DNA of 64,000 bases from a virus (taxonomy: Duplodnaviria; Caudoviricetes): positions 1-64,000 of the IMG/VR virus record IMGVR_UViG_3300030330_002885; one strand, 5' to 3'. The position numbers and the translations under genes are program-made. Under the pieces are notes generated by a model. That model was given only the letters and a program-made list of their open reading frames with translations, was not told where the DNA came from and ran no database searches. Positions 1 to 33,548 of the stretch are shown here, piece after piece (position 1 is the first letter of the stretch; each line of letters opens with the position of its first letter).

Positions 1-72
1 TAAAAATAAAAAAACGCGCAAGTGCCAAAAAAATTCCAGCCCAATTTTTGAATATTAAAGGAGTAATAAATT

Positions 73-462
73 ATGACTTGGAAAGATATAGTGAAAATTA
101 GCGATTATGAGAAAGAGGTTGCAGAAGAATTTGCACCGGAAGAAATGAAACATTTTAATGAACTAAATAAAGTAATAGAATTTATGGAAGGGCCAGCATT
201 AGATACTTTAAGTGATATCTATATTGGAATGAACGAAAGATATATTTCAGGAAAATATGAGGAGTATGGCAAGAATGCAAAAAAACAGTATAAACAAGAT
301 AGAGAAAGAGCAAAGGCTACTGAAAGTGCGTTAGTTGGTTTCATAAAGGATTTGAAAAAATTAAGAAGTTTAGGTAGGTCGGATGAAAGAAATAAAGTTC
401 AAATTAAAACAACTCAAGGAGAAAGAAGTAAACAAAGAAAAGAACTTTTTGGTAGTGAATAA
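73..462 (+). CDS. Hypothetical protein with W-tag leader (MTWKDIVK); N-terminal paralog of 3823..4134
   Basis: ORF preceded by an AAGGAG RBS; the segment EKEVAEEFAPEEMK matches ERELAEEYAPEEMSK of 3823. Confidence 0.8.
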   Translation: MTWKDIVKISDYEKEVAEEFAPEEMKHFNELNKVIEFMEGPALDTLSDIYIGMNERYISGKYEEYGKNAKKQYKQDRERAKATESALVGFIKDLKKLRSLGRSDERNKVQIKTTQGERSKQRKELFGSE

Positions 463-464
463 AA

Positions 465-806
465 ATGACTTGGGAAAATATCGTCAAACGAAAAAAAGAA
501 TACTCAGAAGCACAACGTATGCTTACTGAGTTTTTTAATATTCCATTAAGTGAATTAAATAATCTTAATATTCCACCAAATTTAACTGCTGTATTGAGGT
601 TAGACTCTAATTTAGAAACAATTGATGAAGACAAATTTACTTTATTAATGATGTTATCCGAAGAAGGTAGGTATCAAGAAGTAGTAGATGTATTATCGAA
701 TTTCTTAAGTGCCGCTAGAGCAGAAAGAAGAAAAATCTATCAACAAACTAGCCCTAAGGCCATAGAATGGAGAAGAAAATATAATGAAAGTAGACGGAAA
801 AAATAG
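465..806 (+). CDS. Hypothetical protein with W-tag leader (MTWENIVK)
   Basis: Tightly packed ORF in the tagged array. Confidence 0.8.
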   Translation: MTWENIVKRKKEYSEAQRMLTEFFNIPLSELNNLNIPPNLTAVLRLDSNLETIDEDKFTLLMMLSEEGRYQEVVDVLSNFLSAARAERRKIYQQTSPKAIEWRRKYNESRRKK

Positions 807-817
807 GAAGGGGTAAA

Positions 818-1126
818 ATGAGTTGGATTGATATATTAAAAAATATGGATTCGGCTTTAGATAGAGTAAGAAATAAACCAAGAGAATTTAGGTGGATAGT
901 AGAAGGCTATAATAGACCATTAATTATACATTATATTAACGACCCCTCCGTTATTAAAATATTAAGAGAAAACGAATCCGATGTAAACCAAATGAATAAT
1001 TTGGAATTAAAGAACTTTTTAGAAAAAGATTTAGGAATAGAACCATCTCAAGAAGTATTAGATAATATGGCAAACCGATGGGGTTTAGAACAAGTTGGAC
1101 AAATTACTTGGAGGTATGAAAGATGA
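818..1126 (+). CDS. Hypothetical protein with W-tag leader (MSWIDILK)
   Basis: ORF with GGAAGGGG RBS; ATGA overlap with next gene. Confidence 0.8.
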   Translation: MSWIDILKNMDSALDRVRNKPREFRWIVEGYNRPLIIHYINDPSVIKILRENESDVNQMNNLELKNFLEKDLGIEPSQEVLDNMANRWGLEQVGQITWRYER

Positions 1127-1662
1127 CTTGGAAAGATATATTAAAAAAAGATGATTTCAATACAAGATACAGTGAAATGGCATTCGACAAATATAAGGAG
1201 ATGTTAGAGTCGGGAAAAGATATTGTAATGTGGCCCGATGAGTATGAAAAACATTCTTGGATGTTAATGAGGGATTTTATGAAATTCCTAGAGCATAGGG
1301 AGTTCTTAAGATTAACAAAAGAAGGAATAGAAGTTAAAGAACCATTCTATGTAAAAGATGAAAAAGAAGATGAGAATATGTGGGAGTTCTTAAAAAGCGG
1401 TGATATATTAATAAAAGGTATAAGTTATCCTTTTGCTAGTTATAGTTTGGCAATAGACAAACGCAGGACTATAGACGGAACAGAAAGTGAATGGGATGGT
1501 CATATTGTACACGATGAACTATCTTTTAGAGATATAAAACAGGTAATACATCATTTCTTTACTAATCATCCTAATGAAAAGAAAAAATATATAAATTCAA
1601 TAACCGATAATGAGATTAGGGCTGATATGGCTGAGAGATTTTTTGCGGAGAAGTTAAAATGA
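1123..1662 (+). CDS. Hypothetical protein with W-tag leader (MTWKDILK)
   Basis: ORF with GGAGGT RBS; coupled to both neighbours. Confidence 0.8.
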   Translation: MTWKDILKKDDFNTRYSEMAFDKYKEMLESGKDIVMWPDEYEKHSWMLMRDFMKFLEHREFLRLTKEGIEVKEPFYVKDEKEDENMWEFLKSGDILIKGISYPFASYSLAIDKRRTIDGTESEWDGHIVHDELSFRDIKQVIHHFFTNHPNEKKKYINSITDNEIRADMAERFFAEKLK

Positions 1663-1853
1663 CTTGGAAAGATATAATTAAAAGTTTTGAATGGTATTCA
1701 GAAAAAGGTTTTGAAAAGGCTAAAGAATTTAAAAACGAAGAAGAAGCACAACGTATGGCTGATAAATTAAATAGAGAATTACCTAAAGGAAGAAATAAAT
1801 GGAAGGTTGTTACTTTGTTTAGAAATCCGATGTTAAGAAGGAAGTATGATTAA
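1659..1853 (+). CDS. Small hypothetical protein with W-tag leader (MTWKDIIK)
   Basis: ORF with ATGA overlap; shares a 16-bp segment (EAQRM) with 465..806. Confidence 0.75.
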   Translation: MTWKDIIKSFEWYSEKGFEKAKEFKNEEEAQRMADKLNRELPKGRNKWKVVTLFRNPMLRRKYD

Positions 1854-1854
1854 A

Positions 1855-2112
1855 ATGACTTGGGAAGATATATTAAAGAAACCCGCTAAAGGAAAAAGGT
1901 TTTCTAAAAAGGTTGGTAATAGGACTGTTTCTTATGGACAGGCTGGTAAAGCAAAAGACGGTAAAGATAGAATAAGACCCGGAAGTAAAAAAGGAGATGC
2001 CTATTGTGCAAGGTCAAATAAAATTAAAGGTAATTGGAGAAAAGACCCAAATAGCCCAAACAGATTAAGTAGAAAGAAATGGAAGTGTCGTGGTAATAAA
2101 TCAATGAGATGA
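1855..2112 (+). CDS. Small basic Cys-containing protein with W-tag leader (MTWEDILK)
   Basis: Start moved to the tag Met; AYCARS...DPNSPNRLSRKKWKC resembles small basic proteins of marine phages (recalled, not searched). Confidence 0.75.
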   Translation: MTWEDILKKPAKGKRFSKKVGNRTVSYGQAGKAKDGKDRIRPGSKKGDAYCARSNKIKGNWRKDPNSPNRLSRKKWKCRGNKSMR

Positions 2113-2117
2113 TTAAA

Positions 2118-2315
2118 ATGGATTGGAAAAAAGTAATAAAAGAAATGTCGGATGACGACTTAAAAGAACAATATGATGAACTGTTAGATGAAATTTATGG
2201 AGAAGTTAAATTAGGTAATCTTACCTTTTCTCCATCTAGAATAATTAGGGAATTAGACCCTATAGCATATAGAACAGGATTAAGCGAATATGAGGATTCT
2301 TTAAGAGATGAGTAA
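2118..2315 (+). CDS. Small acidic protein with W-tag leader (MDWKKVIK)
   Basis: Start moved to the tag Met; YDELLDE...PS...DPIAYRTG pattern typical of small phage proteins. Confidence 0.75.
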   Translation: MDWKKVIKEMSDDDLKEQYDELLDEIYGEVKLGNLTFSPSRIIRELDPIAYRTGLSEYEDSLRDE

Positions 2316-2316
2316 T

Positions 2317-2703
2317 ATGAGTTGGAAGGACATATTAAAAGAAAGTCTTGGCCCTGTTACTGAATATCATGGAACTTTAGATTTAAATAGAGTTCTAAAG
2401 TTTGGTATTAATGGTAGTTCGCCACAGTCAAGAAGTAAAAGATATGTTCCTGTTAAATTAAGAGAAGCAGATAAAATAACATATACTGCTAAAGATTTAA
2501 ATGCGGTTATTGAGTTTATTAAAAGGAGAGCAAAACAAACTAAAACAAAGTTAAAAGATTGCGGGGTTGTTGGAGTTATGGGAACAACACTACCACCTGC
2601 AATTGAACATGATGACGGAATGTTAGGAGTTCCTTCTTATGTTAGAGAAGGCGGAATACCAAGAAAATATTTAGTTGATATGCAGGTGGAATTTGAAGAA
2701 TGA
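2317..2703 (+). CDS. Putative ADP-ribosyltransferase/Tpt1-like fold protein with W-tag leader (MSWKDILK)
   Basis: YHGT...VLKFGI, a TYTA strand and C-terminal GGIPRKYL resemble ART-superfamily motifs. Confidence 0.5.
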   Translation: MSWKDILKESLGPVTEYHGTLDLNRVLKFGINGSSPQSRSKRYVPVKLREADKITYTAKDLNAVIEFIKRRAKQTKTKLKDCGVVGVMGTTLPPAIEHDDGMLGVPSYVREGGIPRKYLVDMQVEFEE

Positions 2704-2939
2704 ATTGGTTTGGTATAGTTAAAGGTAAACGATATAAAAAAGGCAATGTAAGTAGAAAGCACAATAAAAATAAAAAAAGAAAGAAAGCCTTAAAAATCTG
2801 TCCAACTCCCAACAAAAAGAAATATCAGAATCATGGTCATGCACTTAGAAGAGCAAGAGAAATTATGGAAAAAACAGGAAATAGAACTTTAAGAGTGTAT
2901 AGATGTGGCGACCATTATCACATCACAAAGAGGGATTAA
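2700..2939 (+). CDS. Basic zinc-finger-like protein with W-tag leader (MNWFGIVK)
   Basis: CPTPNKKKY...RVYRCGDHYHIT Cys/His pattern. Confidence 0.65.
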   Translation: MNWFGIVKGKRYKKGNVSRKHNKNKKRKKALKICPTPNKKKYQNHGHALRRAREIMEKTGNRTLRVYRCGDHYHITKRD

Positions 2940-2940
2940 G

Positions 2941-3114
2941 ATGAATTGGTTTAATACAATTAAAGGTCAAAAAAAGTTACCAAAAGAATTAACCGAAGGT
3001 GCTACCGAGAGTAAGATTACTGCTGATAAATGGTTTAAAGAAAATCAAGCAAAAACAAAACCAACAGATAATACTAAAGGAACTAGACAAACTAAATTAG
3101 GTGAAGAAGAATGA
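2941..3114 (+). CDS. Small protein with W-tag leader (MNWFNTIK)
   Basis: ATG at 2941 after a GAGGGA RBS; the upstream GTG extension is unlikely. Confidence 0.7.
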   Translation: MNWFNTIKGQKKLPKELTEGATESKITADKWFKENQAKTKPTDNTKGTRQTKLGEEE

Positions 3115-3818
3115 GTTGGTTTAATATCCTAAAAGGGAGGTCTGTCGAATTTACTAATGGCTTTATTATGCTTTATGACCCTAGAGAGATTAGTGCTGAA
3201 AAAGCGATTGAGAAACATTATCCATTTAATATAACAGGTGGAAATCATTACGATATCAATACTTGGATTCCAATAGACGTTAAGGATGCTAATGGTTCTA
3301 GTTCTGCACCCTCAATAAATAACCATATATCCGCTATTGAGAAAAAACTAGGGAAATCATTGCCTAAAGACATGAGGGAACGAATGTTAGAGAGTGAAGA
3401 TATTGTAGATTTTATGCAAAAAATGTATGACCAACAAATAGGATTTATTTACATTGCTCCGACTTCATCTTGGAGAGAAAAAGTACCTTTTCATTTTGCA
3501 CAAATTGGTTATGAACAAGGAAATGGATTCAAGAATATGATAAATGCAGTTCCCATACCGGAAGACTATTGGCACTATGATAGTGCTATGAATAATAAAA
3601 GTGGAGTAGTAGTTTCAGGTGGAAAATTAAGTGAGTTTCATCAAAGTGGCTCAAGCAAGATGACTCAAGCATTGCGTGAATTAGATGGGGAAAGACCGGA
3701 AATAGGGCGTTGGAGAGAAGTTGAAGGTAATATTGCCAATCATAGGCAAGGTTCTCCTCAAGATATTGCAGTTGTAATGGAAAAAGTCATTGCTAGAAAA
3801 TTAGATAAGGATTGGTGA
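3111..3818 (+). CDS. Hypothetical protein with W-tag leader (MSWFNILK)
   Basis: 235-aa ORF with GGTGA RBS. Confidence 0.8.
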   Translation: MSWFNILKGRSVEFTNGFIMLYDPREISAEKAIEKHYPFNITGGNHYDINTWIPIDVKDANGSSSAPSINNHISAIEKKLGKSLPKDMRERMLESEDIVDFMQKMYDQQIGFIYIAPTSSWREKVPFHFAQIGYEQGNGFKNMINAVPIPEDYWHYDSAMNNKSGVVVSGGKLSEFHQSGSSKMTQALRELDGERPEIGRWREVEGNIANHRQGSPQDIAVVMEKVIARKLDKDW

Positions 3819-3822
3819 AAAG

Positions 3823-4134
3823 ATGAGTTGGGAAGATATAATTAAAGTGTCTAACTTAGAAAGAGAGTTAGCGGAAGAATATGCTCCTGAAGAAATGTCT
3901 AAATTTAAAGATACATTAAGCAAACTTAATCAATTGTCTAAAGAACTTAACCGAATAGTAAAGAAAGTAATTATTGAAGAAAACAATTTACAGGCTATTC
4001 AAGACTTTGAGGAATTTGCTGGCCCAATGGGTTCAGAAGAAAATGATAAAAGATTAACTAAAATGAAAGAGTTAGCATTAGAATACCAAAAGCAAATAAT
4101 CGCTTTGGAAGAAAAATTAAAAAGGGGTGGATAA
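3823..4134 (+). CDS. Coiled-coil protein with W-tag leader (MSWEDIIK); paralog of 73..462
   Basis: GGTGA RBS; shared ~26-aa N-terminus. Confidence 0.8.
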   Translation: MSWEDIIKVSNLERELAEEYAPEEMSKFKDTLSKLNQLSKELNRIVKKVIIEENNLQAIQDFEEFAGPMGSEENDKRLTKMKELALEYQKQIIALEEKLKRGG

Positions 4135-4485
4135 ATGACTTGGTTTGATAATGTTCAAAAGAAAAGAAATCCAAATAGATGGACTACTTTACAGGTTGGC
4201 CCAATATTAAGAGAATCTTTAGAAGAATGGCATAACACTATAAAAATAGGAGATGATTATAATATTCAAGAAATTAAAGAAGAAGTAAAGGATGACCTTT
4301 ATCAAAGAATGGTTAAACATAAAGGAAAAGATTTACCAGAAAGAAGCACAAAAAGATATCTGAAAAATTTTGATAAAAAAGGAGATGTTAAATTCGATAG
4401 AATTATTAGAGCATTTTTAAATAAAAATAATTATAGAGAATATTCAAGGTCTTATGAAAAAGACCGCTATGAAAAGATGGGGTGA
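4135..4485 (+). CDS. Hypothetical protein with W-tag variant (MTWFDNVQK)
   Basis: ORF abutting the previous stop; GGGGTGG RBS. Confidence 0.75.
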   Translation: MTWFDNVQKKRNPNRWTTLQVGPILRESLEEWHNTIKIGDDYNIQEIKEEVKDDLYQRMVKHKGKDLPERSTKRYLKNFDKKGDVKFDRIIRAFLNKNNYREYSRSYEKDRYEKMG

Positions 4486-4490
4486 ATAAG

Positions 4491-4844
4491 ATGTGGTTTG
4501 AAGAAGTCAAGAAAAAGAAAGATGCTTGTTACCATAAAGTAAAATCAAGATATAAAGAGTGGCCTTCTGCTTATGCTTCTGGCGCATTAGTTCAATGTAG
4601 AAAGGTAGGGGCAAAGAATTGGGGAAATTCTGTAAAGAAAGGACAATTTGATTTAGAAGAAAAAGAAGGATTACGTGGTTGGTTTAAGAGAAATAAAGGA
4701 AAAGGTTGGGTTTCATGCCAATCTTGTGAAGACGATAAAAAAGGCACAAAACCATGTGGAAGAACTGATGCTTCTAAAGGAACTAAACAAAGATGTAGGC
4801 CAAATTGTTCTGCGTGTAAAAATTACAAAAGAAGGAGGGGTTGA
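4491..4844 (+). CDS. Basic Cys-rich protein with W-tag variant (MWFEEVKK)
   Basis: DACYHKVKSRY.WPSAYASGALV.CRKVGA.NWG and GLRGWFK segments resemble small marine-phage proteins (recalled, not searched). Confidence 0.75.
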   Translation: MWFEEVKKKKDACYHKVKSRYKEWPSAYASGALVQCRKVGAKNWGNSVKKGQFDLEEKEGLRGWFKRNKGKGWVSCQSCEDDKKGTKPCGRTDASKGTKQRCRPNCSACKNYKRRRG

Positions 4845-4999
4845 AAATAACTTGGTGGGATATTATTAAAGAGGGTGGCCCTGTAGCATTTGGTGGACAC
4901 GGAACAGGAAATCAATCAGCGTTATTCAATATTAAATATGGAGGTAAAAAGAATGGTAAAAAAAGACACAAGAAAAAACCAAAGAGTAGGGAAGATTAA
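4841..4999 (+). CDS. Unlisted 52-aa basic protein with W-tag (MKITWWDIIKEGG...)
   Basis: Translated by hand: TTG start after GGAGGGG, overlapping the previous stop; TAA at 4997-4999. Confidence 0.65.
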   Translation: MKITWWDIIKEGGPVAFGGHGTGNQSALFNIKYGGKKNGKKRHKKKPKSRED

Positions 5000-6152
5000 T
5001 GGTCATACTATTACTCAAACATTAGATTTTTCTGATGTTACTAAAGATTACAAAAAGTGGAAAGAAGATTGTAAAAGTATGACCGGGTCTGAAATGGGTG
5101 TTAAAAATATTGGTAATTTATTACAAGCCGTTAAAAATCATGGCGTTCCAGAAATGCAAAGGCCAGAATCTTCATTAACTTTTAAACCAATGGAAAATGG
5201 AAAAGATATTATTAATTTCTTAGATAAACAATTAGACCCAAATACTTCAGAAATAGTTGATGCTGAAGTAGATATGGAACTAACAGACATATTAGAAAGA
5301 TTAGAACAGATGGAAAAATCTGGAGCAAATCCTAGAAATATTGTTTTTAATGTTCCTGATATGTCTGCAGTAGACCCCGATACTGCAGTATATGATGAAG
5401 AAGAAGATGTAACAACAGTTTATGGACATTATCGTACAGAAGATTATGTTGAATATAGAAACTTAAAAGCAAGAGTTAAAGATAATGATAAATATAGAGA
5501 AACAATATCACCTAATACGTCTTATTATGATACAGAAAAAAATCAAGCAAAACCACCACTTTGGCAAGCATTTTATTCCGGTGATGGTGAAACAGGAGAT
5601 GATATAAAGAAAGGATTAGTTGTAATTTTAAAATCAACTAAAAAGAAATTAGACGATGGAGAGTTAGCCGTTGAAGTTACTTTAAGGGGTGTTCCAAGAG
5701 GCGGTCTTGCTAATGATATAATGAACAGTTTACCGCAAGTAAGAGATTTCTTTAATAACGCAGTATCTAATCCTAAAAATGCACAATTTGTAAATCAAAA
5801 AACAGGGAACTTTAGAGATGATTTTGTTCAAAGGTTATTACAAAATAGACTTAGTTTTACAGTTCAACCTAAAAGTATTGAAGGAAAGGCAATAGAAAGG
5901 TTATTTGGTTTAGATGAAGAATCATTAGATGAAGAAGCACCATTAGGTGATGTTAAAGGATATACATTAAACATAACTAGAACTATGGTTAAGAACTTAG
6001 CAATGGAAACAGGTAAATGTAGGAGAAGGTCGGCTAAAGGGCCAATTTACTTAACGGAATTTACACAAGAAACTCCAAAGAAAACTTCAAAGAAAACTAA
6101 AGACAAGAAAGGATTAAAGAAATCTTGGAATGAAATATTAAAGGTGAATTAA
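4953..6152 (+). CDS. Hypothetical protein with C-terminal W-tag (KKSWNEILKVN)
   Basis: ATG at 4953 after a GGAGGT RBS, in frame with listed ORF 4890. Confidence 0.8.
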   Translation: MVKKDTRKNQRVGKINGHTITQTLDFSDVTKDYKKWKEDCKSMTGSEMGVKNIGNLLQAVKNHGVPEMQRPESSLTFKPMENGKDIINFLDKQLDPNTSEIVDAEVDMELTDILERLEQMEKSGANPRNIVFNVPDMSAVDPDTAVYDEEEDVTTVYGHYRTEDYVEYRNLKARVKDNDKYRETISPNTSYYDTEKNQAKPPLWQAFYSGDGETGDDIKKGLVVILKSTKKKLDDGELAVEVTLRGVPRGGLANDIMNSLPQVRDFFNNAVSNPKNAQFVNQKTGNFRDDFVQRLLQNRLSFTVQPKSIEGKAIERLFGLDEESLDEEAPLGDVKGYTLNITRTMVKNLAMETGKCRRRSAKGPIYLTEFTQETPKKTSKKTKDKKGLKKSWNEILKVN

Positions 6153-24504: not shown

Positions 24505-27018
24505 ATGCCCACTTCTGGACTCTTTGATAAGGATAAAGGTGAGCATTTAGCGAAGCGTATCTTAGATTTTTATGAAGATATAAGATATAATTATTTATCT
24601 GCAAAAGAAGACCCAAAGAAATATGGACAAAATTGGAAAAAGGCAATAAATAAAATAAGAAATGAATATGATGATTTAGATGATTTTGCTAGAGAACTTA
24701 AGAAATATGTAGATGAAGATTTAATTCATAGTGATTCTGTTTTAAATGTTGAATCTGTTGATGCAAATAAATTATTTAAAACAATTAAAGAGTTTAGATT
24801 TAAATCTAAAGAATTAAATGACCCTTTTTCACAACAGTTAGGTGATAGAGTAATTGAAGTATTATTAGATGATGAAAGCACATATGCTAAATTTATTCAT
24901 TATGCTTTACGTTCACATGAATACCCTATTAGAAATAAATCGTGGGAAACTCATAATATAGAACCGGACACTATTACTGAAGGTGCAAAAGGTTTAGATT
25001 TAAAACCGTCTGATATACCATTATATATTATAGAACATTATGGTGATGATTCTACTGCCGATAAAAAGAGAATAAAATCAAAATACAAAGGTGCGTTATC
25101 TTTACTTAAAAAAGTATATTTAGAAGATAATGATATTGATAGTTGGAATAAACTATTAGACTTAGATATATCTAAAGAAGATACTGAAAAGTCAGAAATT
25201 GAATTTATCGTACCTAACAAACCAATGTATAGAATATTTGAAGTAAAAGATATTGAATCCTTGAAGGGTTTTACAGGAGAATGGTTAGTTCAAGAAAAAT
25301 ATGATGGGATTAGAATACAGATTCATAAAGATAAGGAATCAGTTAAAATATTTTCATATAATCAAAAAGACATTACTAATAAATGTAAAGAAGCAGTAAA
25401 AGAATTAAAGAAGAAAAAATATGGAGATATGATTCTTGATGCAGAATTAATACTGTATGATAATGATGAACCTTTACATAGAGCAGATACTATTGCTCAT
25501 CTTTTTAAGGATAAATATGAAGATGCAACATTGAAAGTTAAAGTATTCGATATAATGAATCACGAAAGTAAGTCTTTATTAGATACTCCATTAAGAGAAA
25601 GAATTAATATTTTATGGTATCAATTTACACAACATTCATCAGATGCAGTTTCATTCCCAAGTAAAAAGAATACAAGATTAGCAGATTCATTAAGTGAAAT
25701 AGAAAAATATTCTAAAGATATAATGGAATCTAAAACTTCAGAAGGTGTAGTAATTAAAGACCTTGAATCAACATATTACATTGGTACTAAAAAGAATCCA
25801 AAATGGATTAAACTGAAAAGGTTTGTTGATTTGGATTTGATTGTTTTAAATAAAAATAAAACTAAATCTAATTTATACTCTTATGTTTTGGGTGTCGGCC
25901 CTCTTTCTGCAGAAGATAGTAGAAATTATAATACTACAGATTTAGAGGGTAAAGAATATCTAAAAGTTGGGAAGGCTCTTAATACTAAAGAAAATGTAGA
26001 AATAGGTTCAATAGTTAGAGTAAAGGTTGATGAAGTTAGAAAAGTTAAAGATGGTTTTAGTTTATATTCCGCTAAAGTAATCGAAATACCAGAAGTAGAT
26101 GCATCAGATAAATTAATAACTTTAGAATTATTATCACAAGAAGGTAGAAAGACTCTCAAATATAATGTAGAAAATGCACTTAAAAAATTCTATGTTAGTG
26201 ATGGTGTTCATGGAAAAAGTGAAATTTTATTAAAATCAGATTATGATGGATATACTATTTATGGATTTAAGGGCGATGACTTAATGAATAAAAATGCAAT
26301 ATCTGATTTGGATTCTTTAAAACAAGAATTAGAAGATATACATAAAACAAAATCTTCTGATGCAAGAATAGCGATAAGAAAATTCTTAAAAGAAGAAGAC
26401 CCCGAAGATAAGAATGGTGTTCATATTGATGAAATTTTTAAGTTTTGCGTAGATAAGATACCGGAACTCACAGAAGAATTATGGGAAAATAATAAAAGAA
26501 AATTAAGGAATTGGTTAAACGACCAACATGATTTTATGCAATTAGCAAATAATAAATTTACATCTAGTAATTCTTTAATAAAAGAAGAAGAAGATAGTAA
26601 AAAGGGAACTTTTAAATTATATAAAAGAAAAGATGAAAATTTAGATTTAATTATTACTTATAAAGGTAAAGAATTAATATGGACAATTGATATAGATAAG
26701 GAAAAGGACATTTTTAACTTATTCGGCAAAGCAAATAAATATCCAGCAGAAATAGCAAGAAATAGTAATGTTGAGGATATTGTTGATAAAGGAGAAATTT
26801 TAATCGGTGTTCAAAAACATGGATATCACGAATATAAATTATTAGGTGATAAATTTGAAACTAGATTACATTTCCGTGTAGTTCCGGTTGATGAACAGAA
26901 TAAATGGTTAGCATGGACAGGTTATAAACAAACTATGTTAGATGATGAAGAAGACGAAGGTTTATGGGATATTTATAATGATAGGCATAAAAAATTAACC
27001 ATGAAATTTTCTAATTAG
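24505..27018 (+). CDS. lig: ATP-dependent DNA ligase with N- and C-terminal extensions
   Basis: Motif I EKYDG, III ILDAE, IIIa VFDIM, IV EGVVIK, V WIKLK, then an OB fold. Confidence 0.92.
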   Translation: MPTSGLFDKDKGEHLAKRILDFYEDIRYNYLSAKEDPKKYGQNWKKAINKIRNEYDDLDDFARELKKYVDEDLIHSDSVLNVESVDANKLFKTIKEFRFKSKELNDPFSQQLGDRVIEVLLDDESTYAKFIHYALRSHEYPIRNKSWETHNIEPDTITEGAKGLDLKPSDIPLYIIEHYGDDSTADKKRIKSKYKGALSLLKKVYLEDNDIDSWNKLLDLDISKEDTEKSEIEFIVPNKPMYRIFEVKDIESLKGFTGEWLVQEKYDGIRIQIHKDKESVKIFSYNQKDITNKCKEAVKELKKKKYGDMILDAELILYDNDEPLHRADTIAHLFKDKYEDATLKVKVFDIMNHESKSLLDTPLRERINILWYQFTQHSSDAVSFPSKKNTRLADSLSEIEKYSKDIMESKTSEGVVIKDLESTYYIGTKKNPKWIKLKRFVDLDLIVLNKNKTKSNLYSYVLGVGPLSAEDSRNYNTTDLEGKEYLKVGKALNTKENVEIGSIVRVKVDEVRKVKDGFSLYSAKVIEIPEVDASDKLITLELLSQEGRKTLKYNVENALKKFYVSDGVHGKSEILLKSDYDGYTIYGFKGDDLMNKNAISDLDSLKQELEDIHKTKSSDARIAIRKFLKEEDPEDKNGVHIDEIFKFCVDKIPELTEELWENNKRKLRNWLNDQHDFMQLANNKFTSSNSLIKEEEDSKKGTFKLYKRKDENLDLIITYKGKELIWTIDIDKEKDIFNLFGKANKYPAEIARNSNVEDIVDKGEILIGVQKHGYHEYKLLGDKFETRLHFRVVPVDEQNKWLAWTGYKQTMLDDEEDEGLWDIYNDRHKKLTMKFSN

Positions 27019-27056: not shown

Positions 27057-28292
27057 ATGCAACCCCTACTGTTAAAGTCAGACTCAGAATATGAGTTTAA
27101 TATTCTGAAATCTGATGATTTAGTCATAGGTGGATATGCTTCAATTGAGATTGTTGATAAACAAAATGATTTAATTACATTAAAGGCTTTAGAAGAAGCA
27201 GTAAACAAATATATGTCTGAAAAGAAATATAGAAATGTAATGTCTAATCATTCAAATGTACAGGTTGGAGAAGTTATTGAAAAATATCGAGATAAATCTG
27301 GAAATTTACATCAAACAAAGGTTGATGATGTTGGCTTCTATGTTGTAATCAAATTGAGAGATGATATAGAAAAGGCCAAAGAAGTGTCGAGAGGAATAAG
27401 AAAGGGAAACCTGCGTTCATTTAGTATAGGTGGACAAGCACTTTCAAAAGTCAAAAAGACAAATGATACTCTTGGCGAGTATAATGAAATAAATAAATTG
27501 GAACTCCATGAAATCACTATTTGCGAGAAGGGGATTAATCCTGAAGCAAAATTTGATATTCTAAAGGAGGATAGGGAAATGACCGAAAAATTGGAAAAAG
27601 CCTTAGAAGAACTGAATGACTTGATGAAACAAGTTAATGAATTGCGAAAGGAGGGTGAAGACCCTGAAATGGATAAAGGTGATTATGGAGGTAAAGAACC
27701 TGAGGAAGAAATTGCTATGGGCGATTATGCTTCTATGGACACAGATGAAGAAGAAAAGGCAGATATGGATGATGAAGAATCCGAAAAAGCCGATTACGAT
27801 ATGGAAGAAAAAATGATTGATGGGCCATCTGGCCCTGTAGAAGATGGAGGCGCAGGTTCTACTTCAAGTGGAAAGCCTCATGTTCAGAATGGACAATTCG
27901 GAACATTAAAAGTACCATCTTCTATTAGTAAAGAATGGACTAATGATGAATTTAACACATTAGACCTTTCTGCTGAAAATGTGGAGAAAGCCTATGAAGC
28001 ATACAAAGCAGAACAATTAGAGAAGATGGCTTATGATTCTCTAAAGACACAATTTGCTGAAAGATTTGCTACAGAACAATCTGTTAGAAAGTCTGAAGTA
28101 GAGCGTAATGAGTATAATGCAATGGATGAAGTAAATTCTTTGAGAGAAGAATTTGCTACATTAAGAAAGAGTTTGACTGAACAACAAGAAACAATTGTTA
28201 AGTCTGCTACTGTCGCATTACCTGAGGTAGATGTATCAGAACTATCTTGGGGCGAATTACACAACATAGTTAATGAATACGAGGTTGAGTAA
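27057..28292 (+). CDS. HK97-type prohead protease fused to an acidic scaffold domain
   Basis: GYAS...VDKQNDLI, His in MSNH, Ser in LRSFSIGG, LHEITICEKGINPEA; coiled-coil C-terminal half; directly upstream of the capsid gene. Confidence 0.9.
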   Translation: MQPLLLKSDSEYEFNILKSDDLVIGGYASIEIVDKQNDLITLKALEEAVNKYMSEKKYRNVMSNHSNVQVGEVIEKYRDKSGNLHQTKVDDVGFYVVIKLRDDIEKAKEVSRGIRKGNLRSFSIGGQALSKVKKTNDTLGEYNEINKLELHEITICEKGINPEAKFDILKEDREMTEKLEKALEELNDLMKQVNELRKEGEDPEMDKGDYGGKEPEEEIAMGDYASMDTDEEEKADMDDEESEKADYDMEEKMIDGPSGPVEDGGAGSTSSGKPHVQNGQFGTLKVPSSISKEWTNDEFNTLDLSAENVEKAYEAYKAEQLEKMAYDSLKTQFAERFATEQSVRKSEVERNEYNAMDEVNSLREEFATLRKSLTEQQETIVKSATVALPEVDVSELSWGELHNIVNEYEVE

Positions 28293-30454: not shown

Positions 30455-30757
30455 ATGCAAATGGTTAGTTGTAATTCAAGTGGAGTATTAACTGCATCAA
30501 AAGTAGTTTCAAGTGGTAGAACAAGGATAGCGTCTGTGCGAGTTATGGGGAACAGTTCAACAACAGGCGATATTAAAGTTTATGATTCATCAACCGCAAC
30601 AACATCTGGTAAAAAAGAAATTACTAGAATGTTTGTTGGCGGAACATCACAAAATGGTGCAAATAATTTTGAATTTGATATGCATGGGGTAATTGCCGCA
30701 GAAGGAGTTTATGTTGTAGTAACAGGAACAATTGCATATTCGGTTGAATATTATTGA
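30455..30757 (+). CDS. Small beta-rich putative virion protein
   Basis: S/T/G/V-rich ORF in the head region. Confidence 0.6.
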   Translation: MQMVSCNSSGVLTASKVVSSGRTRIASVRVMGNSSTTGDIKVYDSSTATTSGKKEITRMFVGGTSQNGANNFEFDMHGVIAAEGVYVVVTGTIAYSVEYY

Positions 30758-30765
30758 GGGATTTT

Positions 30766-31170
30766 ATGCCAGCATTAGAAAAAGACACAAAATTAGTAAT
30801 GACTATTTTATTTGTAGGTGCGATAAGTGGAACGAATGTATATTTCTATTCTAAATATGGATTTATGATTGGTTTTAATGATTACGCTGATGCGTTAGTA
30901 TTTGGTTTACTAACGATTGGTGGTATTTTAGTTATGAAGGCGGTATTTGATTTAGCCTTAAACGACAGAATAGAAATGATTCTTTTAGATAGAAGAATAG
31001 CCGGATATTGGGCAAAAAAACAAAGAGATGAACAACAAAGAGAAAAAATTCTTACATCTCTTAATCAAAACAATCAAACAAATTATGTCCAACCACCTCC
31101 ATCTTATATCCAACAACCACAGGAAGAAGCAAGGGGGGTTTCTCCTTCTTTCTTAGCGAAATTGGAGTAG
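30766..31170 (+). CDS. Membrane protein (2 predicted TM helices, coiled coil, Q/P-rich tail)
   Basis: LVMTILFVGAISGTNVYFY and ALVFGLLTIGGILVMKAVF hydrophobic runs. Confidence 0.75.
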   Translation: MPALEKDTKLVMTILFVGAISGTNVYFYSKYGFMIGFNDYADALVFGLLTIGGILVMKAVFDLALNDRIEMILLDRRIAGYWAKKQRDEQQREKILTSLNQNNQTNYVQPPPSYIQQPQEEARGVSPSFLAKLE

Positions 31171-31175
31171 ATTAA

Positions 31176-31403
31176 ATGTTAGATGCTTTAACCTTTGGTT
31201 TTGATGAATCTACTTTAGCATATGATTTGCAAAGAGCACATTCAGCAGATATTTGGTTTTTAAGAGCAAGATTTTATTTTTGGGCTACAGTTTGTAGTGT
31301 TGTGTCCTTTTTTATAGGACACGGTATAAGTTTATTTGGATATAACTTATACGCTGGTGCATGGAATGGAACGGTTAATTTATGGAATCATTTGTTGGGT
31401 TAG
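31176..31403 (+). CDS. Small single-pass membrane protein
   Basis: FYFWATVCSVVSFFIGHGISLFG hydrophobic run. Confidence 0.75.
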   Translation: MLDALTFGFDESTLAYDLQRAHSADIWFLRARFYFWATVCSVVSFFIGHGISLFGYNLYAGAWNGTVNLWNHLLG

Positions 31404-31406
31404 TTT

Positions 31407-32075
31407 ATGTCTTTAATGACGGGCTTTGTTATATTGATGGCTGAACAAGTTAGTTTATTTTGGAAAAAAGTTCATGCAATACCATTTGGAGTATATGGGG
31501 CAACTCAAGTAGGTAAAACAACAATGCATCATCAATTAAGAACAAGAGGCGAAGTACCGGATATTAAAGATAGAACTGTTGGTAGAAATAGGGCAACAAG
31601 AAAAACTATTAAAATAGATGGCGACCAACATACAATTAAAACATCAGATATCGGAGGTGAAACATTATATTGGGGTGAATGGCTACAAGACATGAAAACT
31701 AGGAAAACTAAATACATTATTTTTATGATTGATGATAGACATATGGATAAACACTATGATATTGAGCAACAATTATGTTGGACTTTTTTAGTTGATGCTA
31801 TATGTTCTCCTTATTGGGATTCTATTAATAAAAGACAAAAAAAGAAAAAACATGATTATCCTGTAGCAGTAGGAATTTGGGCAAATAAATTTGATTTATG
31901 GAAAGATAGATACCCTTATGATGATATACAAAAACACCCTATATTTGATGCATTTAAAGACGGTATGACTAAATTAAATGATAGAGGAATACCATGTTTT
32001 AAATATATAGTAAGTGCAAAGTCTGATTCAGAAATGGTTTATAGAGGAATAACAACGATGATTAACGATTATTAA
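31407..32075 (+). CDS. Ras-superfamily small GTPase, Arf/Sar1-like
   Basis: G1 GATQVGKT, G2 candidate RTVG, G3 DIGG, G4 NKFD, G5 SAK; hydrophobic N-terminal helix. Confidence 0.85.
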   Translation: MSLMTGFVILMAEQVSLFWKKVHAIPFGVYGATQVGKTTMHHQLRTRGEVPDIKDRTVGRNRATRKTIKIDGDQHTIKTSDIGGETLYWGEWLQDMKTRKTKYIIFMIDDRHMDKHYDIEQQLCWTFLVDAICSPYWDSINKRQKKKKHDYPVAVGIWANKFDLWKDRYPYDDIQKHPIFDAFKDGMTKLNDRGIPCFKYIVSAKSDSEMVYRGITTMINDY

Positions 32076-32146
32076 GGTGATTAAATGAACTTAACACAAA
32101 TAGATGAAGTTAATTCTTCAATTGGATATATATGGAGGTATGAATA

Positions 32147-32827
32147 ATGACTATTCAATACAATCCTCCTTCATTAATTGGTGCTACAAATGCTACTGTA
32201 GCAAATCCTTTTTTACCACCAATTAAATTTGCAAGAGCGGCTGGCCCTGTTATTACACATGATTACATTAGTAGTAAGCCTAAAAAACAGGTTAAAGAAA
32301 TGATTAAAATTCTTTGGCCTGAAAGAAAGAAATTTTTAGGTATAAAATATGGATATAAATTTAATACTAAAGATAGATGTGTTGTTTGTGGAACACATAA
32401 AGTATGGGATGCTTCTGACCCAATGAGGCCAACAATACCTTTACATAAAGTTAGAAAGGGTTATCCGATGAGAGGAACATATTGTGATAAACATTCAGCA
32501 TTACATCGCCAATACGAAATGTTAGAGCAACAAATAATTGCTGATGAACACGGTTTAGAATTTAGTTCATATATTCCTAAACCCAAAGTGCCTAAAATGT
32601 TACAATCTGGGCCGCTAACTTCATTAAGGCAATCCGATATTGAGTCATTAGCGACATTGGGGTGGGGCATTAAACCCCCAACCATGATTAATGAAACAAA
32701 AGAAGATGAATTATTTAGACTAACAATAGAGAGTCAAACTTTGAATAAAAGAATTTTACAACTTTTAACTGAAGAAACTAAAATTAAAACTATTGAAGAA
32801 CCAATATTAGAAAAAGAAGGTGAATAG
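32147..32827 (+). CDS. Zinc-finger (CxxC...CxxH) protein
   Basis: CVVCG...YCDKH; GGAGGT RBS. Confidence 0.7.
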   Translation: MTIQYNPPSLIGATNATVANPFLPPIKFARAAGPVITHDYISSKPKKQVKEMIKILWPERKKFLGIKYGYKFNTKDRCVVCGTHKVWDASDPMRPTIPLHKVRKGYPMRGTYCDKHSALHRQYEMLEQQIIADEHGLEFSSYIPKPKVPKMLQSGPLTSLRQSDIESLATLGWGIKPPTMINETKEDELFRLTIESQTLNKRILQLLTEETKIKTIEEPILEKEGE

Positions 32828-32828
32828 A

Positions 32829-33548
32829 ATGGGTTTATTAGGAACAAGTAATAAAAACTTATCACAACAAATAACTGCACAGGGTCAATCTGACTTCAAG
32901 GTAATGAATAATCTTTTAACATTACAAGAAAATCATGTAGAAGAATTTTTTACTTATCACGGTGAAATGTTTTTAACTGCATTTGAACAATTATTAGAAG
33001 ATGTTGTTGAAAGAGTAGTAAGTAGACAATTGATTCAATTAAAATTTAATTCTAATCCAACGGGTGATTTAGAAGTTCATCCAGATTCAATAAGAGAATT
33101 TGAACAAATAACTGCGGCAAATATTCAATTAGATTTACAAAATTTATTAGCATCAGCATTAAATACAGAAGTTATTATGCAAAGAAAAATGGCTAAACAA
33201 CAATATTTAGAATCACAAGGATTCCAAACAAATCAAGTAGGCGCACAACAACCACAATTACCACAAGGTCAAATGCCTCAAGGTCAAGTAAATGCAGGTG
33301 GATTAAATCCTTCACAGATAAGTGGCGGTAATCCAATTGTTCAAGCAAATAACGTAATGATGCAACAACAACAAGCATTTAACAATCCATCGGGTTATCC
33401 GGTTGCACCTAATGGTTATGATACAATGGGTAATCCTTATTGGATAGACCCAAATACAGGACAACCAAGTTATACACCGCCCGGTTCAGGTTTAGGTATT
33501 AGTAATTTAATTCAAAAAGGTGCGGCATGGGCCGCTTGGTTGGCTTAA
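32829..33548 (+). CDS. Helical protein with Q/P/G low-complexity region and amphipathic C-terminus
   Basis: ATG at 32829 after GGTGA; ends ISNLIQKGAAWAAWLA. Confidence 0.75.
   Translation: MGLLGTSNKNLSQQITAQGQSDFKVMNNLLTLQENHVEEFFTYHGEMFLTAFEQLLEDVVERVVSRQLIQLKFNSNPTGDLEVHPDSIREFEQITAANIQLDLQNLLASALNTEVIMQRKMAKQQYLESQGFQTNQVGAQQPQLPQGQMPQGQVNAGGLNPSQISGGNPIVQANNVMMQQQQAFNNPSGYPVAPNGYDTMGNPYWIDPNTGQPSYTPPGSGLGISNLIQKGAAWAAWLA

Follow-up and report, generated by a model that had tools for sequence, protein, structure and literature searches.

A five-gene cassette around a divergent Arf-like small GTPase in a magrovirus-type tailed virus, with a possible role at the host membrane

Gene content of the cassette and its genome

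A cassette of five open reading frames (ORFs) was found in the window, that is, the whole 64,000-nucleotide stretch of DNA analysed here (positions 1 to 64,000 of IMG/VR record IMGVR_UViG_3300030330_002885). All five ORFs are on the plus strand, at the positions given to them in a preliminary description of this DNA. They sit between MCP and the neck and tail genes, in agreement with that description, which had placed the cluster between capsid and neck genes. The ORFs are closely spaced: neighbours are 3-72 nt apart or overlap slightly, and this packing suggests that the five genes may form an operon. No published description of this cassette was found in the literature. The genes are as follows.

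30766..31170, plus strand: gene 1, small membrane protein with two predicted transmembrane (TM) segments; 138 aa counted from TTG 30754
31176..31403, plus strand: gene 2, single-TM protein; 75 aa
31407..32075, plus strand: gene 3, divergent Arf-like small GTPase; 222 aa, starting 3 nt past the gene 2 stop
32147..32827, plus strand: gene 4, soluble zinc protein; 226 aa, CCCH site C78-x2-C81...C113-x2-H116
32820..33548, plus strand: gene 5, Q-rich protein; 242 aa, its GTG start overlapping the gene 4 stop

The source genome is that of a tailed virus, has 92,994 bp (~93 kb) and is 99% complete. The structural genes are in the order TerL, portal, ligase, protease, MCP; PolB is on the opposite strand, and an ERCC4 nuclease is also present. 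The features of a magrovirus were thus found: a tailed genome of ~65-100 kb, a DNA ligase within the structural module and a replication block of archaeal type that includes PolB. By comparison with the published description, this plan fits that of the magroviruses (order Magrovirales), which belong to the most abundant viruses in the surface ocean (PMC5434244). Judging from the magrovirus-like plan, the hosts are probably marine group II archaea.

The ORF of gene 1 is open from the TTG at 30754, with the ATG at 30766 as the first codon of the family consensus (MPALE.DTKL). Hydropathy analysis placed its TM segments at about residues 14-32 and 43-70; they are followed by a charged helix, a variable Q/N/P-rich tail and a conserved PSFL..E at the end. 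Gene 1 was present in 77 of the 80 related loci, always immediately upstream, and gave no Pfam or PHROG match. In gene 2, the TM segment is at residues 37-55 by hydropathy, preceded by a conserved N-terminal segment (GFDESTLAYDLQRAHSAD.WFLRARF), and the C-terminus is Trp-rich; this gene was present in 79 of the 80 loci. The hydropathy results agree with the two-TM and one-TM proteins that had been proposed upstream of the GTPase. Small TM proteins are generic.

Gene 4 has seven residues that are invariant in the alignment (C78, G82, W87, T111, Y112, C113 and H116). No Pfam family, ArfGap and OapC included, matched it at E<=1, and a profile search of the PDB gave nothing better than E 0.38. An ArfGAP finger was considered and rejected, given the lack of a Pfam match and the spacing C-x2-C-x31-C-x2-H, the spacing in the ArfGAP finger being CxxC-x16-CxxC. 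No ArfGAP or Sec7 homologue was seen. Gene 5 encodes a helical N-terminal half and a Q/G/P/N-rich low-complexity middle, with a conserved PYWIDP.TGQP.YTPP motif and a conserved hydrophobic tail (KGAAWA.WLA); it was present in 69 of the 80 loci. The zinc and Q-rich proteins that had been described downstream were therefore seen, with the CCCH site in the one and the conserved KGAAWAxWLA tail in the other, so that all four neighbours of the GTPase are as described.

The GTPase and its closest relatives

The features of the gene 3 product are listed below.

31410..31472, plus strand: N-terminal hydrophobic helix, residues 2-22 (AF2 helix); G6, F7, I9 and E13 invariant
31497..31520, plus strand: G1/P-loop, G31-A-T-Q-V-G-K-T38; G31, G36, K37 and T38 invariant
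31572..31583, plus strand: G2/switch I candidate, R56-T57-V-G59 (compare P-T-I-G of Arf)
31647..31682, plus strand: G3/switch II, D81-I-G-G84-E-T-L-Y-W-G-E-W92, the DxGG[E/Q/H] plus Trp signature of Arf/Sar/G-alpha
31806..31865, plus strand: insertion of ~20 residues (134-153) between helix 3 and strand 5, with polybasic KRQKKKKHD
31884..31895, plus strand: G4, N160-K-F-D163, guanine specificity; N160 and K161 invariant in all alignments, D163 invariant or near-invariant
32013..32021, plus strand: G5, S203-A-K205; invariant in group 1

All of G1-G5 are invariant in a 20-sequence family alignment. Even when 28 superfamily sequences with 18-33% identity are aligned, G1, G3 and G4 do not vary. 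Thus, the G1, G3, G4 and G5 boxes and the candidate G2 Thr that had been read from the sequence are present and invariant in the family. T39 follows G1, giving GKTT as in Arf/Sar. In switch I, R56, T57 and G59 are invariant in group 1; across the three groups of the virus-only alignment, T57 remains invariant and R56 nearly so. In switch II, D81, G84 and W92 are invariant across virus groups, and position 85 is E, Q or H depending on the family member. The Arf-like details pointed out earlier, namely GKTT, DxGG[EQ] followed by the invariant W92, and an N-terminal helix of 21 residues, are therefore real.

The N-terminal helix has a mean hydrophobicity of 0.36-0.72 and a low hydrophobic moment (0.13-0.29); residues 2-12 are uniformly hydrophobic and residues 13-22 mixed. 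Its hydrophobic character thus stood, and the helix looks more uniformly hydrophobic than it does amphipathic. Residues 2-22 are a candidate membrane anchor or a candidate switchable helix of the Arf type; because the helix is not clearly amphipathic, it could be a fixed anchor instead of a switchable one. The insertion was modelled as a beta-hairpin (AF2 strands 136-139 and 142-145) and is missing from the aligned Arf proteins. It is K-rich in group 1 and R/K-rich in group 2, and might bind acidic lipids.

The AF2 model of the GTPase (pLDDT 90.2, pTM 0.86) has a small-GTPase fold. Foldseek gave at least 500 matches at E<=0.001, the best listed being small GTPases and G-alpha at E~1e-9. In VIA-align, ranks 1-41 were all Arf/Arl, Asgard ArfR or SRbeta; the best match was Arf6 (Z 18.9, rmsd 2.3 A, 161 aligned residues, 23% identity), and Rab first appeared at rank 42 (Z 17.0). 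As judged from the model, Arf leads Rab by a modest structural margin of only ~2 Z units. When a virus-only profile was compared with solved chains, the best match was GerdArfR1-GDP (PDB 8OUN; E 1.2e-9), ~1000-fold better than Rab33B (1.6e-6), with KRas at 2e-4. This alignment spans the N-terminal amphipathic helix of full-length GerdArfR1, which is aligned to the viral helix 2-22.

No Pfam or NCBIfam model matched the GTPase of the window above threshold. Sub-threshold Pfam scores were 19.6 bits for MMR_HSR1, 18.5 for Roc and 14.6 for SRPRB, and Pfam Arf (PF00025, gathering score 22.3) gave no match at E<=1. Five distant superfamily members scored above the Arf value of 22.3 bits (P0178, 36.5; P0197, 32.1; P0156, 27.2; P0190, 26.8; P0198, 25.5), and the nearest named Atlas clusters carry Arf. 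With the motifs in order and a G-domain fold, the protein is very probably a functional small GTPase, in which GTP binding and switching would be expected. The helix directly before strand 1, the switch II signature with GKTT, and the closest solved structures and sequences make membership close to the Arf clade likely. Because every Pfam threshold failed, we call it Arf-like rather than a certified Arf. The preliminary proposal of a virus-encoded small GTPase of the Arf/Sar type is thus supported by fold, profile and motifs.

The viral GTPase has the same fold as the Arf/ArfR proteins (GerdArfR1 8OUN/8OUM, HodArfR1 8OUK, Arf6, Arf1, Arl1, Arl3 and Arl8), which matched it with Z 17.5-18.9 and rmsd 2.3-2.6 A over ~160 residues at 20-25% identity. 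The helix before strand 1, GKTT, T-x-G in switch I, DxGG[Q/E/H] then Trp, and NKxD are common to both. In contrast to Arf, the viral N-helix is longer, more uniformly hydrophobic and without the Gly2 for myristoylation, the ~20-residue polybasic insertion precedes strand 5, position 85 is often Glu instead of the catalytic Gln, and the gene belongs to a tailed virus, where it shares a cassette with genes for membrane proteins.

Conservation and origin of the cassette

The gene order (two-TM protein, one-TM protein, GTPase, zinc protein, Q-rich protein) is retained across the related group 1 loci, and the same five-gene order was found in group 2, a sister virus group. Between the two groups, the MCPs are 45% identical and the GTPases 32%. 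By hhalign, the group 1 and group 2 GTPases matched with 99.9% probability, and the zinc proteins at the same position are homologous (95.2%, E 2.6e-8, 115 columns). The other three genes matched weakly, but their best matches were on the diagonal: gene 1 and its positional counterpart with P 0.028 over 75 columns; gene 2 and its counterpart, which has a similar N-terminal motif (DDATEATLRAMHTQNTLD.YYERG), with P 0.008 over 57 columns; and gene 5 and the Q/P-rich protein at the same position with P 0.007 over 85 columns.

The cassette of group 1 is downstream of MCP. That of group 2 is upstream of both TerL (by 7-8 kb) and MCP (by ~21-24 kb). From these two placements, we conclude that the cassette moved as a unit. 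The preliminary description had named conservation of the neighbourhood as a check on its reading; the neighbourhood is conserved, and even shifts as a unit between virus groups. A third virus group has a looser version of the cassette. At locus L168, the cassette is directly upstream of candidate head genes and of a protein with a threshold-level DUF2213 match, which we read as a protease-scaffold.

The dN/dS ratios were 0.05-0.11 for all five genes in both groups (gene 1, 0.05; gene 2, 0.11; gene 4, 0.09; gene 5, 0.10). All five cassette genes are under strong purifying selection. The GTPase had 347 homologues at E<=0.01, and 207 IMG/VR loci carry the family; with the low dN/dS, the observation of the cassette is far above chance.

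The position of the cassette bears on whether it serves virion assembly. As a membrane-anchored platform, it would tether or license procapsid initiation, packaging or head-tail joining, with the GTP cycle as a checkpoint; T4, whose proheads are initiated on the inner membrane, offers a loose analogy. In all three groups, the cassette is among morphogenesis genes or adjoins them (between MCP and the neck and tail genes in the window, just upstream of the terminase block in group 2 and next to the candidate head genes at L168), which fits assembly as well as egress. Within group 1, the GTPase is also conserved about as well as MCP or more (median identity 76% vs 66%). However, the GTPase diverges faster than MCP between the groups, and the cassette stays intact while its structural neighbours change, which speaks against its being tied to any one structural protein. 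Moreover, we know of no virus of the HK97 type that needs a small GTPase for assembly. An assembly platform is thus rather unlikely in our estimation.

When 1.84 billion representatives were searched with the GTPase, only 80 matches were obtained at E<=0.001, mostly fragments of the same GTPase family; ~15 were full-length distant relatives, too few to include the ArvA family. Of 185,579 GTDB species genomes, a single MAG, labelled Maricaulis, contained the GTPase; it was on two contigs, one of which carries an 83% identical GTPase. This MAG is probably mis-binned. As there is no close cellular homologue, the GTPase is not a recent capture from a host. Capture of host GTPases by viruses does occur, as with the mimivirus Rab (PDB 5XC5), which was among the VIA-align matches, and a captured protein without a dedicated viral role could stand beside unrelated small ORFs by chance. 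Such a lone capture among ordinary host GTPases, raised in the preliminary description against its own reading, disagrees with the few cellular matches, with the confinement to one MAG, with the retention of the cassette across groups whose MCPs have diverged to less than half identity, and with the low dN/dS. This explanation is very improbable and is effectively already refuted.

Known systems and the proposed mechanism

Arf-like GTPases were once thought to be specific to eukaryotes and are now known in Asgard archaea and, as ArvA, in Euryarchaeota. Asgard ArfRs attach to membranes via the N-terminal helix (bioRxiv 10.1101/2024.02.28.582541). The ArvA-ArvB-ArvC operon is found in Haloferax volcanii and other Euryarchaeota/DPANN, and in Haloferax the Arf-like ArvA, acting with a Zn-ribbon protein, causes vesicles to bud (PMC10927574). 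By its description, ArvA shares with the viral GTPase the Arf-like character, the archaeal context, an N-terminal hydrophobic helix and a zinc-binding protein encoded adjacent; for both, MMR_HSR1 is the best Pfam model and Arf is nearest by profile methods. Membrane budding has been demonstrated for ArvA, and ArvABC offers the best functional analogy for the viral cassette. In contrast to the viral cassette, the arv operon is without the two TM proteins and the Q-rich protein. In the 93-kb genome, ArvB (DUF2073, PF09846) was not matched in six frames, with a positive Haloferax control, and ArvC (DUF2072 Zn-ribbon, PF09845) was not matched either, again with a positive control. The viral zinc protein matched neither ArvB nor ArvC in Pfam, and because both are absent, the viral cassette is not the ArvABC system.

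SRbeta, an Arf-clade GTPase with an N-terminal hydrophobic anchor, was another close structural match (2FH5_B, Z 17.6), and SRPRB recurred as a sub-threshold Pfam match in 14 of 28 family members. Identity with SRbeta was rejected: SRPRB (PF09439) scored 14.6 bits against a threshold of 25, no SRalpha/SRX-like partner was found, and the context is viral and late. Both systems would suit a takeover of the host membrane unrelated to release, such as vesicle budding, secretion, SRbeta-like protein insertion or surface remodelling for superinfection exclusion: SRbeta by its anchor, and ArvA in that vesiculation driven by it exists in Euryarchaeota. The ArvA-rich phyla named in PMC10927574 do not include the phylum of marine group II, so that, speculatively, the virus might supply the function. 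The cassette, however, is strongly purified by selection and lies in a late block, and the two partners of ArvA are absent. Genes for exclusion or takeover are usually early, variable and dispensable. We consider takeover of this kind improbable.

There are fairly good grounds to place the action of the cassette at a membrane, because 2 + 1 TM segments are encoded upstream and the GTPase has a hydrophobic N-helix; membrane binding would follow from these features. Since the cassette is embedded among late morphogenetic genes, a membrane task at the end of infection is deemed most likely, late expression being assumed from position. We propose that the five genes form a cassette that acts at the membrane, carried by a tailed virus of the magrovirus type and built on a highly divergent GTPase of the Arf type, which may work as a GTP/GDP switch. 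When active, the GTPase would be located at the host membrane, on the cytoplasmic side, anchored by its hydrophobic N-helix and possibly assisted by the polybasic hairpin. Its partners at this site would be the small integral membrane proteins from genes 1 and 2, and the CCCH zinc protein and the Q-rich protein may be its soluble regulator and effector. Late in infection, the cassette would reshape or breach the host membrane, fixing the time or place of virion release. Several steps of this chain are presumed: that the GTPase switches between nucleotides and binds membranes, that the five proteins contact one another, that expression is late and that the cassette serves egress. The chain with its release role is put forward tentatively. 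Egress is the leading reading of the role of the cassette, held with still more reserve. The fuller proposal is that the virus has a eukaryote-like machine of its own for remodelling membranes, in which the Arf-type GTPase, from a lineage independent of eukaryotes, works with both membrane proteins, the zinc protein as regulator and the Q-rich protein as scaffold to bend or rupture the host membrane and release virions; it is somewhat doubtful.

How tailed viruses of archaea leave hosts without a murein wall is an open question in the field. If true, this would be the first mechanism of egress to be described for Caudoviricetes of archaea that lack a murein wall, and an Arf-like switch lineage would have evolved in viruses independently of eukaryotes. 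As the cassette is conserved, selected and mobile, with an Arf-like switch and membrane partners, it yields a concrete five-protein hypothesis, one open to testing without culturing the host.

Holin lysis cassettes resemble the viral cassette in that small two-TM and one-TM proteins are encoded together among the late genes of a tailed virus. The products of genes 1 and 2 are compatible with holins in size and TM count, yet neither matched a Pfam or PHROG holin. Among the ORFs scanned in the window, no holin, endolysin or spanin family was matched in Pfam or PHROG; the earlier statement that the window has no recognisable holin or endolysin holds as far as these ORFs are concerned. In contrast to lysis cassettes, the viral cassette is thus without such a match, and its presumed host is without a murein wall. 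To our knowledge, no lysis cassette contains a small GTPase.

The viral GTPase extends Arf-like GTPases to viruses of prokaryotes, which bears on the evolution and spread of membrane-trafficking switches. The mimivirus Rab is also a virus-encoded GTPase of the Ras superfamily and matched the model with Z 17.0. Whereas giant-virus Rabs are recognisable eukaryotic captures in viruses of eukaryotes, the viral Arf-like GTPase forms an isolated, deeply divergent lineage in viruses of prokaryotes, with a gene cassette of its own.

The five-gene cassette and its conservation between virus groups

ORF calling in the window showed a cassette of five co-directional genes, with spacers of 3-72 nt or short overlaps between them.

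30754-33548, + strand: cassette of five co-directional ORFs (ORF calling)
ATG at 30766 as conserved start, + strand: gene 1, 138-aa protein (ORF calling)
Between genes 1 and 3, + strand: gene 2, 75-aa protein
31407-32075, + strand: gene 3, 222-aa GTPase
3′ of the GTPase gene, + strand: gene 4, 226-aa protein
Last of the cassette, to 33548, + strand: gene 5, 242-aa protein

On the 5′ side of the cassette lie a Peptidase_S78 protease-scaffold fusion, the major capsid protein (MCP; SU10_MCP and PHROG major head protein) and three small ORFs. On the 3′ side, five ORFs of no known function are followed by the tail tube protein (Phage_tube_2). By hydropathy, gene 1 encodes two transmembrane (TM) segments, gene 2 encodes one, and genes 4 and 5 encode none; the N-terminal helix of the GTPase was borderline TM-like. 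The gene 4 product possesses an invariant Cys/His site (C78, C81, C113 and H116), and the gene 5 product is helical in its N-terminal half, Q/G/P-rich in the middle and ends in a hydrophobic tail that is conserved. Thus, the two-TM and one-TM proteins upstream of the GTPase and the zinc-finger and Q-rich proteins downstream of it, which the preliminary description had reported, were all recovered.

The gene 4 product matched no known family, including ArfGAP and ArvC, in Pfam and in the PDB profile search, and the ESM Atlas and PDB profile searches gave no usable match for this zinc protein. In the gene 5 product, residues 201-221 (window 33420-33485; PYWIDP.TGQP.YTPP) weakly resemble the second half of a WW domain. 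A WW domain was rejected since the Pfam E value was only 0.41 and the segment, conserved in group 1 (the virus group of the window), is absent from group 2 (its sister group). A PPxY late domain in the tail of the gene 1 product (PPPSY) was also dropped, because the motif varies across the family.

In the full-length group 1 loci shown, the order was protease, MCP, small ORFs and then genes 1 to 5, and each cassette gene was present in 69-80 of the 80 loci. The median identity was 76% for the GTPase versus 66% for MCP; the GTPase is about as conserved as MCP or more. The group 2 GTPase (P0133 type), found at 127 further IMG/VR loci, is about 32% identical to that of the window. The group 2 genomes are about 100-118 kb, and their MCP and TerL are 44-46% and 36-37% identical to those of the window, respectively. 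These genomes also carry five genes in the same order, which encode a two-TM protein (~190 aa), a one-TM protein (~82 aa), the GTPase (~240 aa), a Cys/His protein (~294 aa) and a Q/P-rich protein (~205 aa). In the profile-profile comparison of groups 1 and 2, the GTPases (99.9%) and the zinc proteins (95.2%, E 2.6e-8) were homologous. The two-TM, one-TM and Q-rich pairs gave weak signals (P 0.007-0.03), each best or near-best on the diagonal, and the one-TM proteins have a recognisable N-terminal motif in common. The dN/dS values of all five genes were 0.05-0.11 in both groups.

The window cassette lies downstream of MCP, unlike that of group 2, which follows a giant ORF of ~2000 aa, with TerL located 7-8 kb and MCP about 21-24 kb downstream. 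Since the genomic positions differ, the five genes have moved as one block. Conservation of the neighbourhood, named as a check in the preliminary description, thus holds in both groups despite the relocation. The movement as one block is strong evidence that the predicted products function together.

In one group 2 locus (L114, a 102,931-bp record), the ORF directly upstream of the cassette (40-6108; 2022 aa, no Pfam match) has several Cys/His clusters as well as short peptides repeated in tandem (LDVGDINIGEEKPT). In a third, more distant type (L168; GTPases P0186 and P0199), a GTPase with a TM helix has a multi-TM protein and a zinc-ribbon protein rich in Q, Y and P as its flanking neighbours. 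The cluster of L168 is located directly upstream of candidate head genes and of an ORF with a threshold-level DUF2213 match, which we take to be a protein of the protease-scaffold type.

Metatranscriptome contigs from two studies were near-identical to the protease/MCP region, gene 1, the 3′ end of gene 4 and gene 5, and not to the GTPase gene. Since RNA libraries may contain DNA, these contigs give no conclusion on expression. A sigma-70 promoter and terminator scan gave fewer promoter-like sites than shuffled sequences, and such a scan is not meaningful for an archaeal host.

The GTPase lineage and its Arf-like affinity

The window GTPase has 347 homologues at E<=0.01. GTPases of its type occur at 207 IMG/VR loci, which derive from marine metagenomes, Tara among them, and in many cases lie on 90-100 kb contigs. 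Among 20 aligned sequences (62-82% identity), G31..GKT38, R56-T57-x-G59, D81-x-G-G84, N160-K-x-D163 and S203-A-K205 were invariant, which bears out the G1, G3, G4 and G5 boxes and the candidate G2 Thr of the preliminary description. G1, G3 and G4 were still invariant among 28 sequences down to 18-33% identity. Alone, the window GTPase scored below every curated threshold (MMR_HSR1 19.6, Roc 18.5, SRPRB 14.6 and TIGR00231 20.8 bits).

When 1.84 billion representative proteins were searched with a profile, only 80 matched at E<=0.001, mostly fragments of the same family, with about 15 full-length distant relatives. This small number speaks against a recent lone capture of a host GTPase, which had been raised beforehand; the GTPase is an isolated lineage. 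Among 185,579 prokaryotic species, each represented by one genome, the GTPase was found only on two contigs of one metagenome-assembled genome (MAG) labelled Maricaulis. These contigs (NZMJ01000101.1 and NZMJ01000024.1; Maricaulis sp. IN14) encode GTPases 83% and 64% identical to that of the window, and are almost certainly viral contigs mis-binned into the alphaproteobacterial MAG. The GTPases of groups 1, 2 and 3 had no tblastn match in GenBank phage and archaeal-virus records, and the search for related loci with alignment A4 or the relative P0130 found none.

Several distant relatives are on contigs too short to show the gene context. The relative P0136 (264 aa, with a Cys-rich insertion; Logan SRR31155651, 10,957 bp contig) is encoded with Tad2-like and Acb5 anti-defence proteins and a phage integrase, and has no small TM genes directly upstream. 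Thus, the family is also present in another kind of mobile element. The most distant relatives (L166, 283-1652, and the P0178 contig) pass the Pfam Arf threshold, and each is followed by a ~216-aa protein without a family match. As L166 also carries a ROK-kinase-like gene, the two contigs look cellular; the GTPase and its partner may be a conserved two-gene pair.

AlphaFold2 modelling was performed on P0001, which differs from the window GTPase by one P-loop residue (V35E). With close homologues only, pLDDT was 61.6 and residues 33-86 were below 50; when distant relatives were added, pLDDT was 90.2 and pTM 0.86. In the model, a helix at the N-terminus (residues 2-22) precedes a canonical G domain, to which a beta-hairpin at 136-145 is added. 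This insertion between helix 3 and strand 5 (window 31806-31865) carries a polybasic run (KRQKKKKHD); it is basic in groups 1 and 2 and absent from the aligned Arf proteins.

By Foldseek, the model matched small GTPases from every family (E~1e-9). After VIA-align re-ranking, rows 1-41 were Arf6, Arl3, Arl1, Arf1, Arl6, Arl2, Arl8, SRbeta and Asgard Arf-related (ArfR) proteins (Z 18.9-17.0, rmsd about 2.4 A, 20-25% identity), and the first Rab appeared at rank 42 (Z 17.0). Against the PDB, the virus-only profile of the three groups (A7) matched best full-length GerdArfR1-GDP (8OUN; E 1.2e-9), with the N-terminal helix within the alignment, followed by Rab33B (1.6e-6), GerdArfR1-GTP (3.5e-6), Arl8 (1.3e-4) and KRas (2e-4). 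Another profile (A6) ranked Arf first as well, and was set aside in favour of A7 because cellular bridging sequences of Arf-like type are among its members. Asgard ArfR proteins attach to membranes with their N-terminal helix and undergo the Arf interswitch toggle (bioRxiv 10.1101/2024.02.28.582541). The Pfam Arf threshold was passed by five distant superfamily members, and Arf is also the family carried by the closest named ESM Atlas clusters. The GTPase also has motifs of the Arf/Sar/G-alpha type: GKTT, T-x-G in switch I, and DxGG[E/Q/H] followed by an invariant Trp. On the basis of the fold ranking, the A7 profile, the bridging members, the Atlas clusters and these motifs, the viral GTPase is therefore called Arf-like and closest to Asgard ArfR, with a modest margin over Rab and below Pfam membership. 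The Arf-like character first noticed in the motifs is thus upheld.

Proposed role of the cassette

Haloferax needs ArvA, an Arf-like GTPase whose N-terminal helix is hydrophobic, to form extracellular vesicles; ArvB (DUF2073) and ArvC, a Zn-ribbon protein and proposed GAP, are encoded alongside it (PMC10927574). ArvA is the nearest functional precedent for the viral GTPase. The Pfam models of ArvB and ArvC had no match in the virus genome, and the Haloferax control was positive. As both are missing from the virus, the cassette is not the ArvABC system; by analogy, it may work in a similar manner.

That the predicted viral Arf-type switch acts with the viral membrane proteins at the host membrane is well supported. 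As to the purpose, membrane-anchored assembly ranks second and seems rather unlikely, and some other takeover of the host membrane, ranked third, is less probable still. Control of virion release ranks first, as a tentative preference. Release is favoured on indirect grounds: the cassette lies in the late block and is not tied to any one structural neighbour, it encodes two small holin-sized membrane proteins, Arf-like GTPases have precedent for deforming archaeal membranes, and no other lysis function was recognised among the scanned ORFs. The five cassette proteins and the ten proteins encoded immediately around them had no match to a holin, endolysin or ArfGAP family.

The papers that we consulted on magroviruses, Poseidoniales viruses and archaeal Caudoviricetes do not mention a GTPase. 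A full-text search for magroviruses or marine group II viruses with GTPase gave nothing, and a broader search for archaeal viruses with Arf gave no work on marine group II viruses.

Virus genome and probable host

The source record is 92,994 bp and was judged 99% complete. The genes run in the order TerL, a 464-aa ORF without assignment, portal, ATP-dependent DNA ligase, protease and MCP, and the opposite strand encodes a family-B DNA polymerase and an ERCC4 nuclease. Magroviruses are viruses assigned to marine group II archaea, and the ligase within the structural module and the archaeal-type replication block fit their published genome plan (PMC5434244). From this plan, we infer a magrovirus with a marine group II host.

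The polymerase match (G000:C1:67297-68493, minus strand, outside the window) contains 12 stop codons. These stops could reflect a change of frame within the match, or a split or interrupted gene such as has been reported in certain magrovirus groups. The ligase domain occupies only residues 251-438 of an 837-aa protein (window 24505-27018), whose large N- and C-terminal extensions have no family match. Its location between portal and protease corresponds to the ligase in the structural module as described for magrovirus groups A and B. In the product of window 27057-28292, Peptidase_S78 (residues 21-177) is joined to a long C-terminal half, acidic and coiled-coil in character, which matches a PHROG head scaffolding family. 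It looks like a protease-scaffold fusion, encoded directly 5′ of MCP with a 20-nt overlap.
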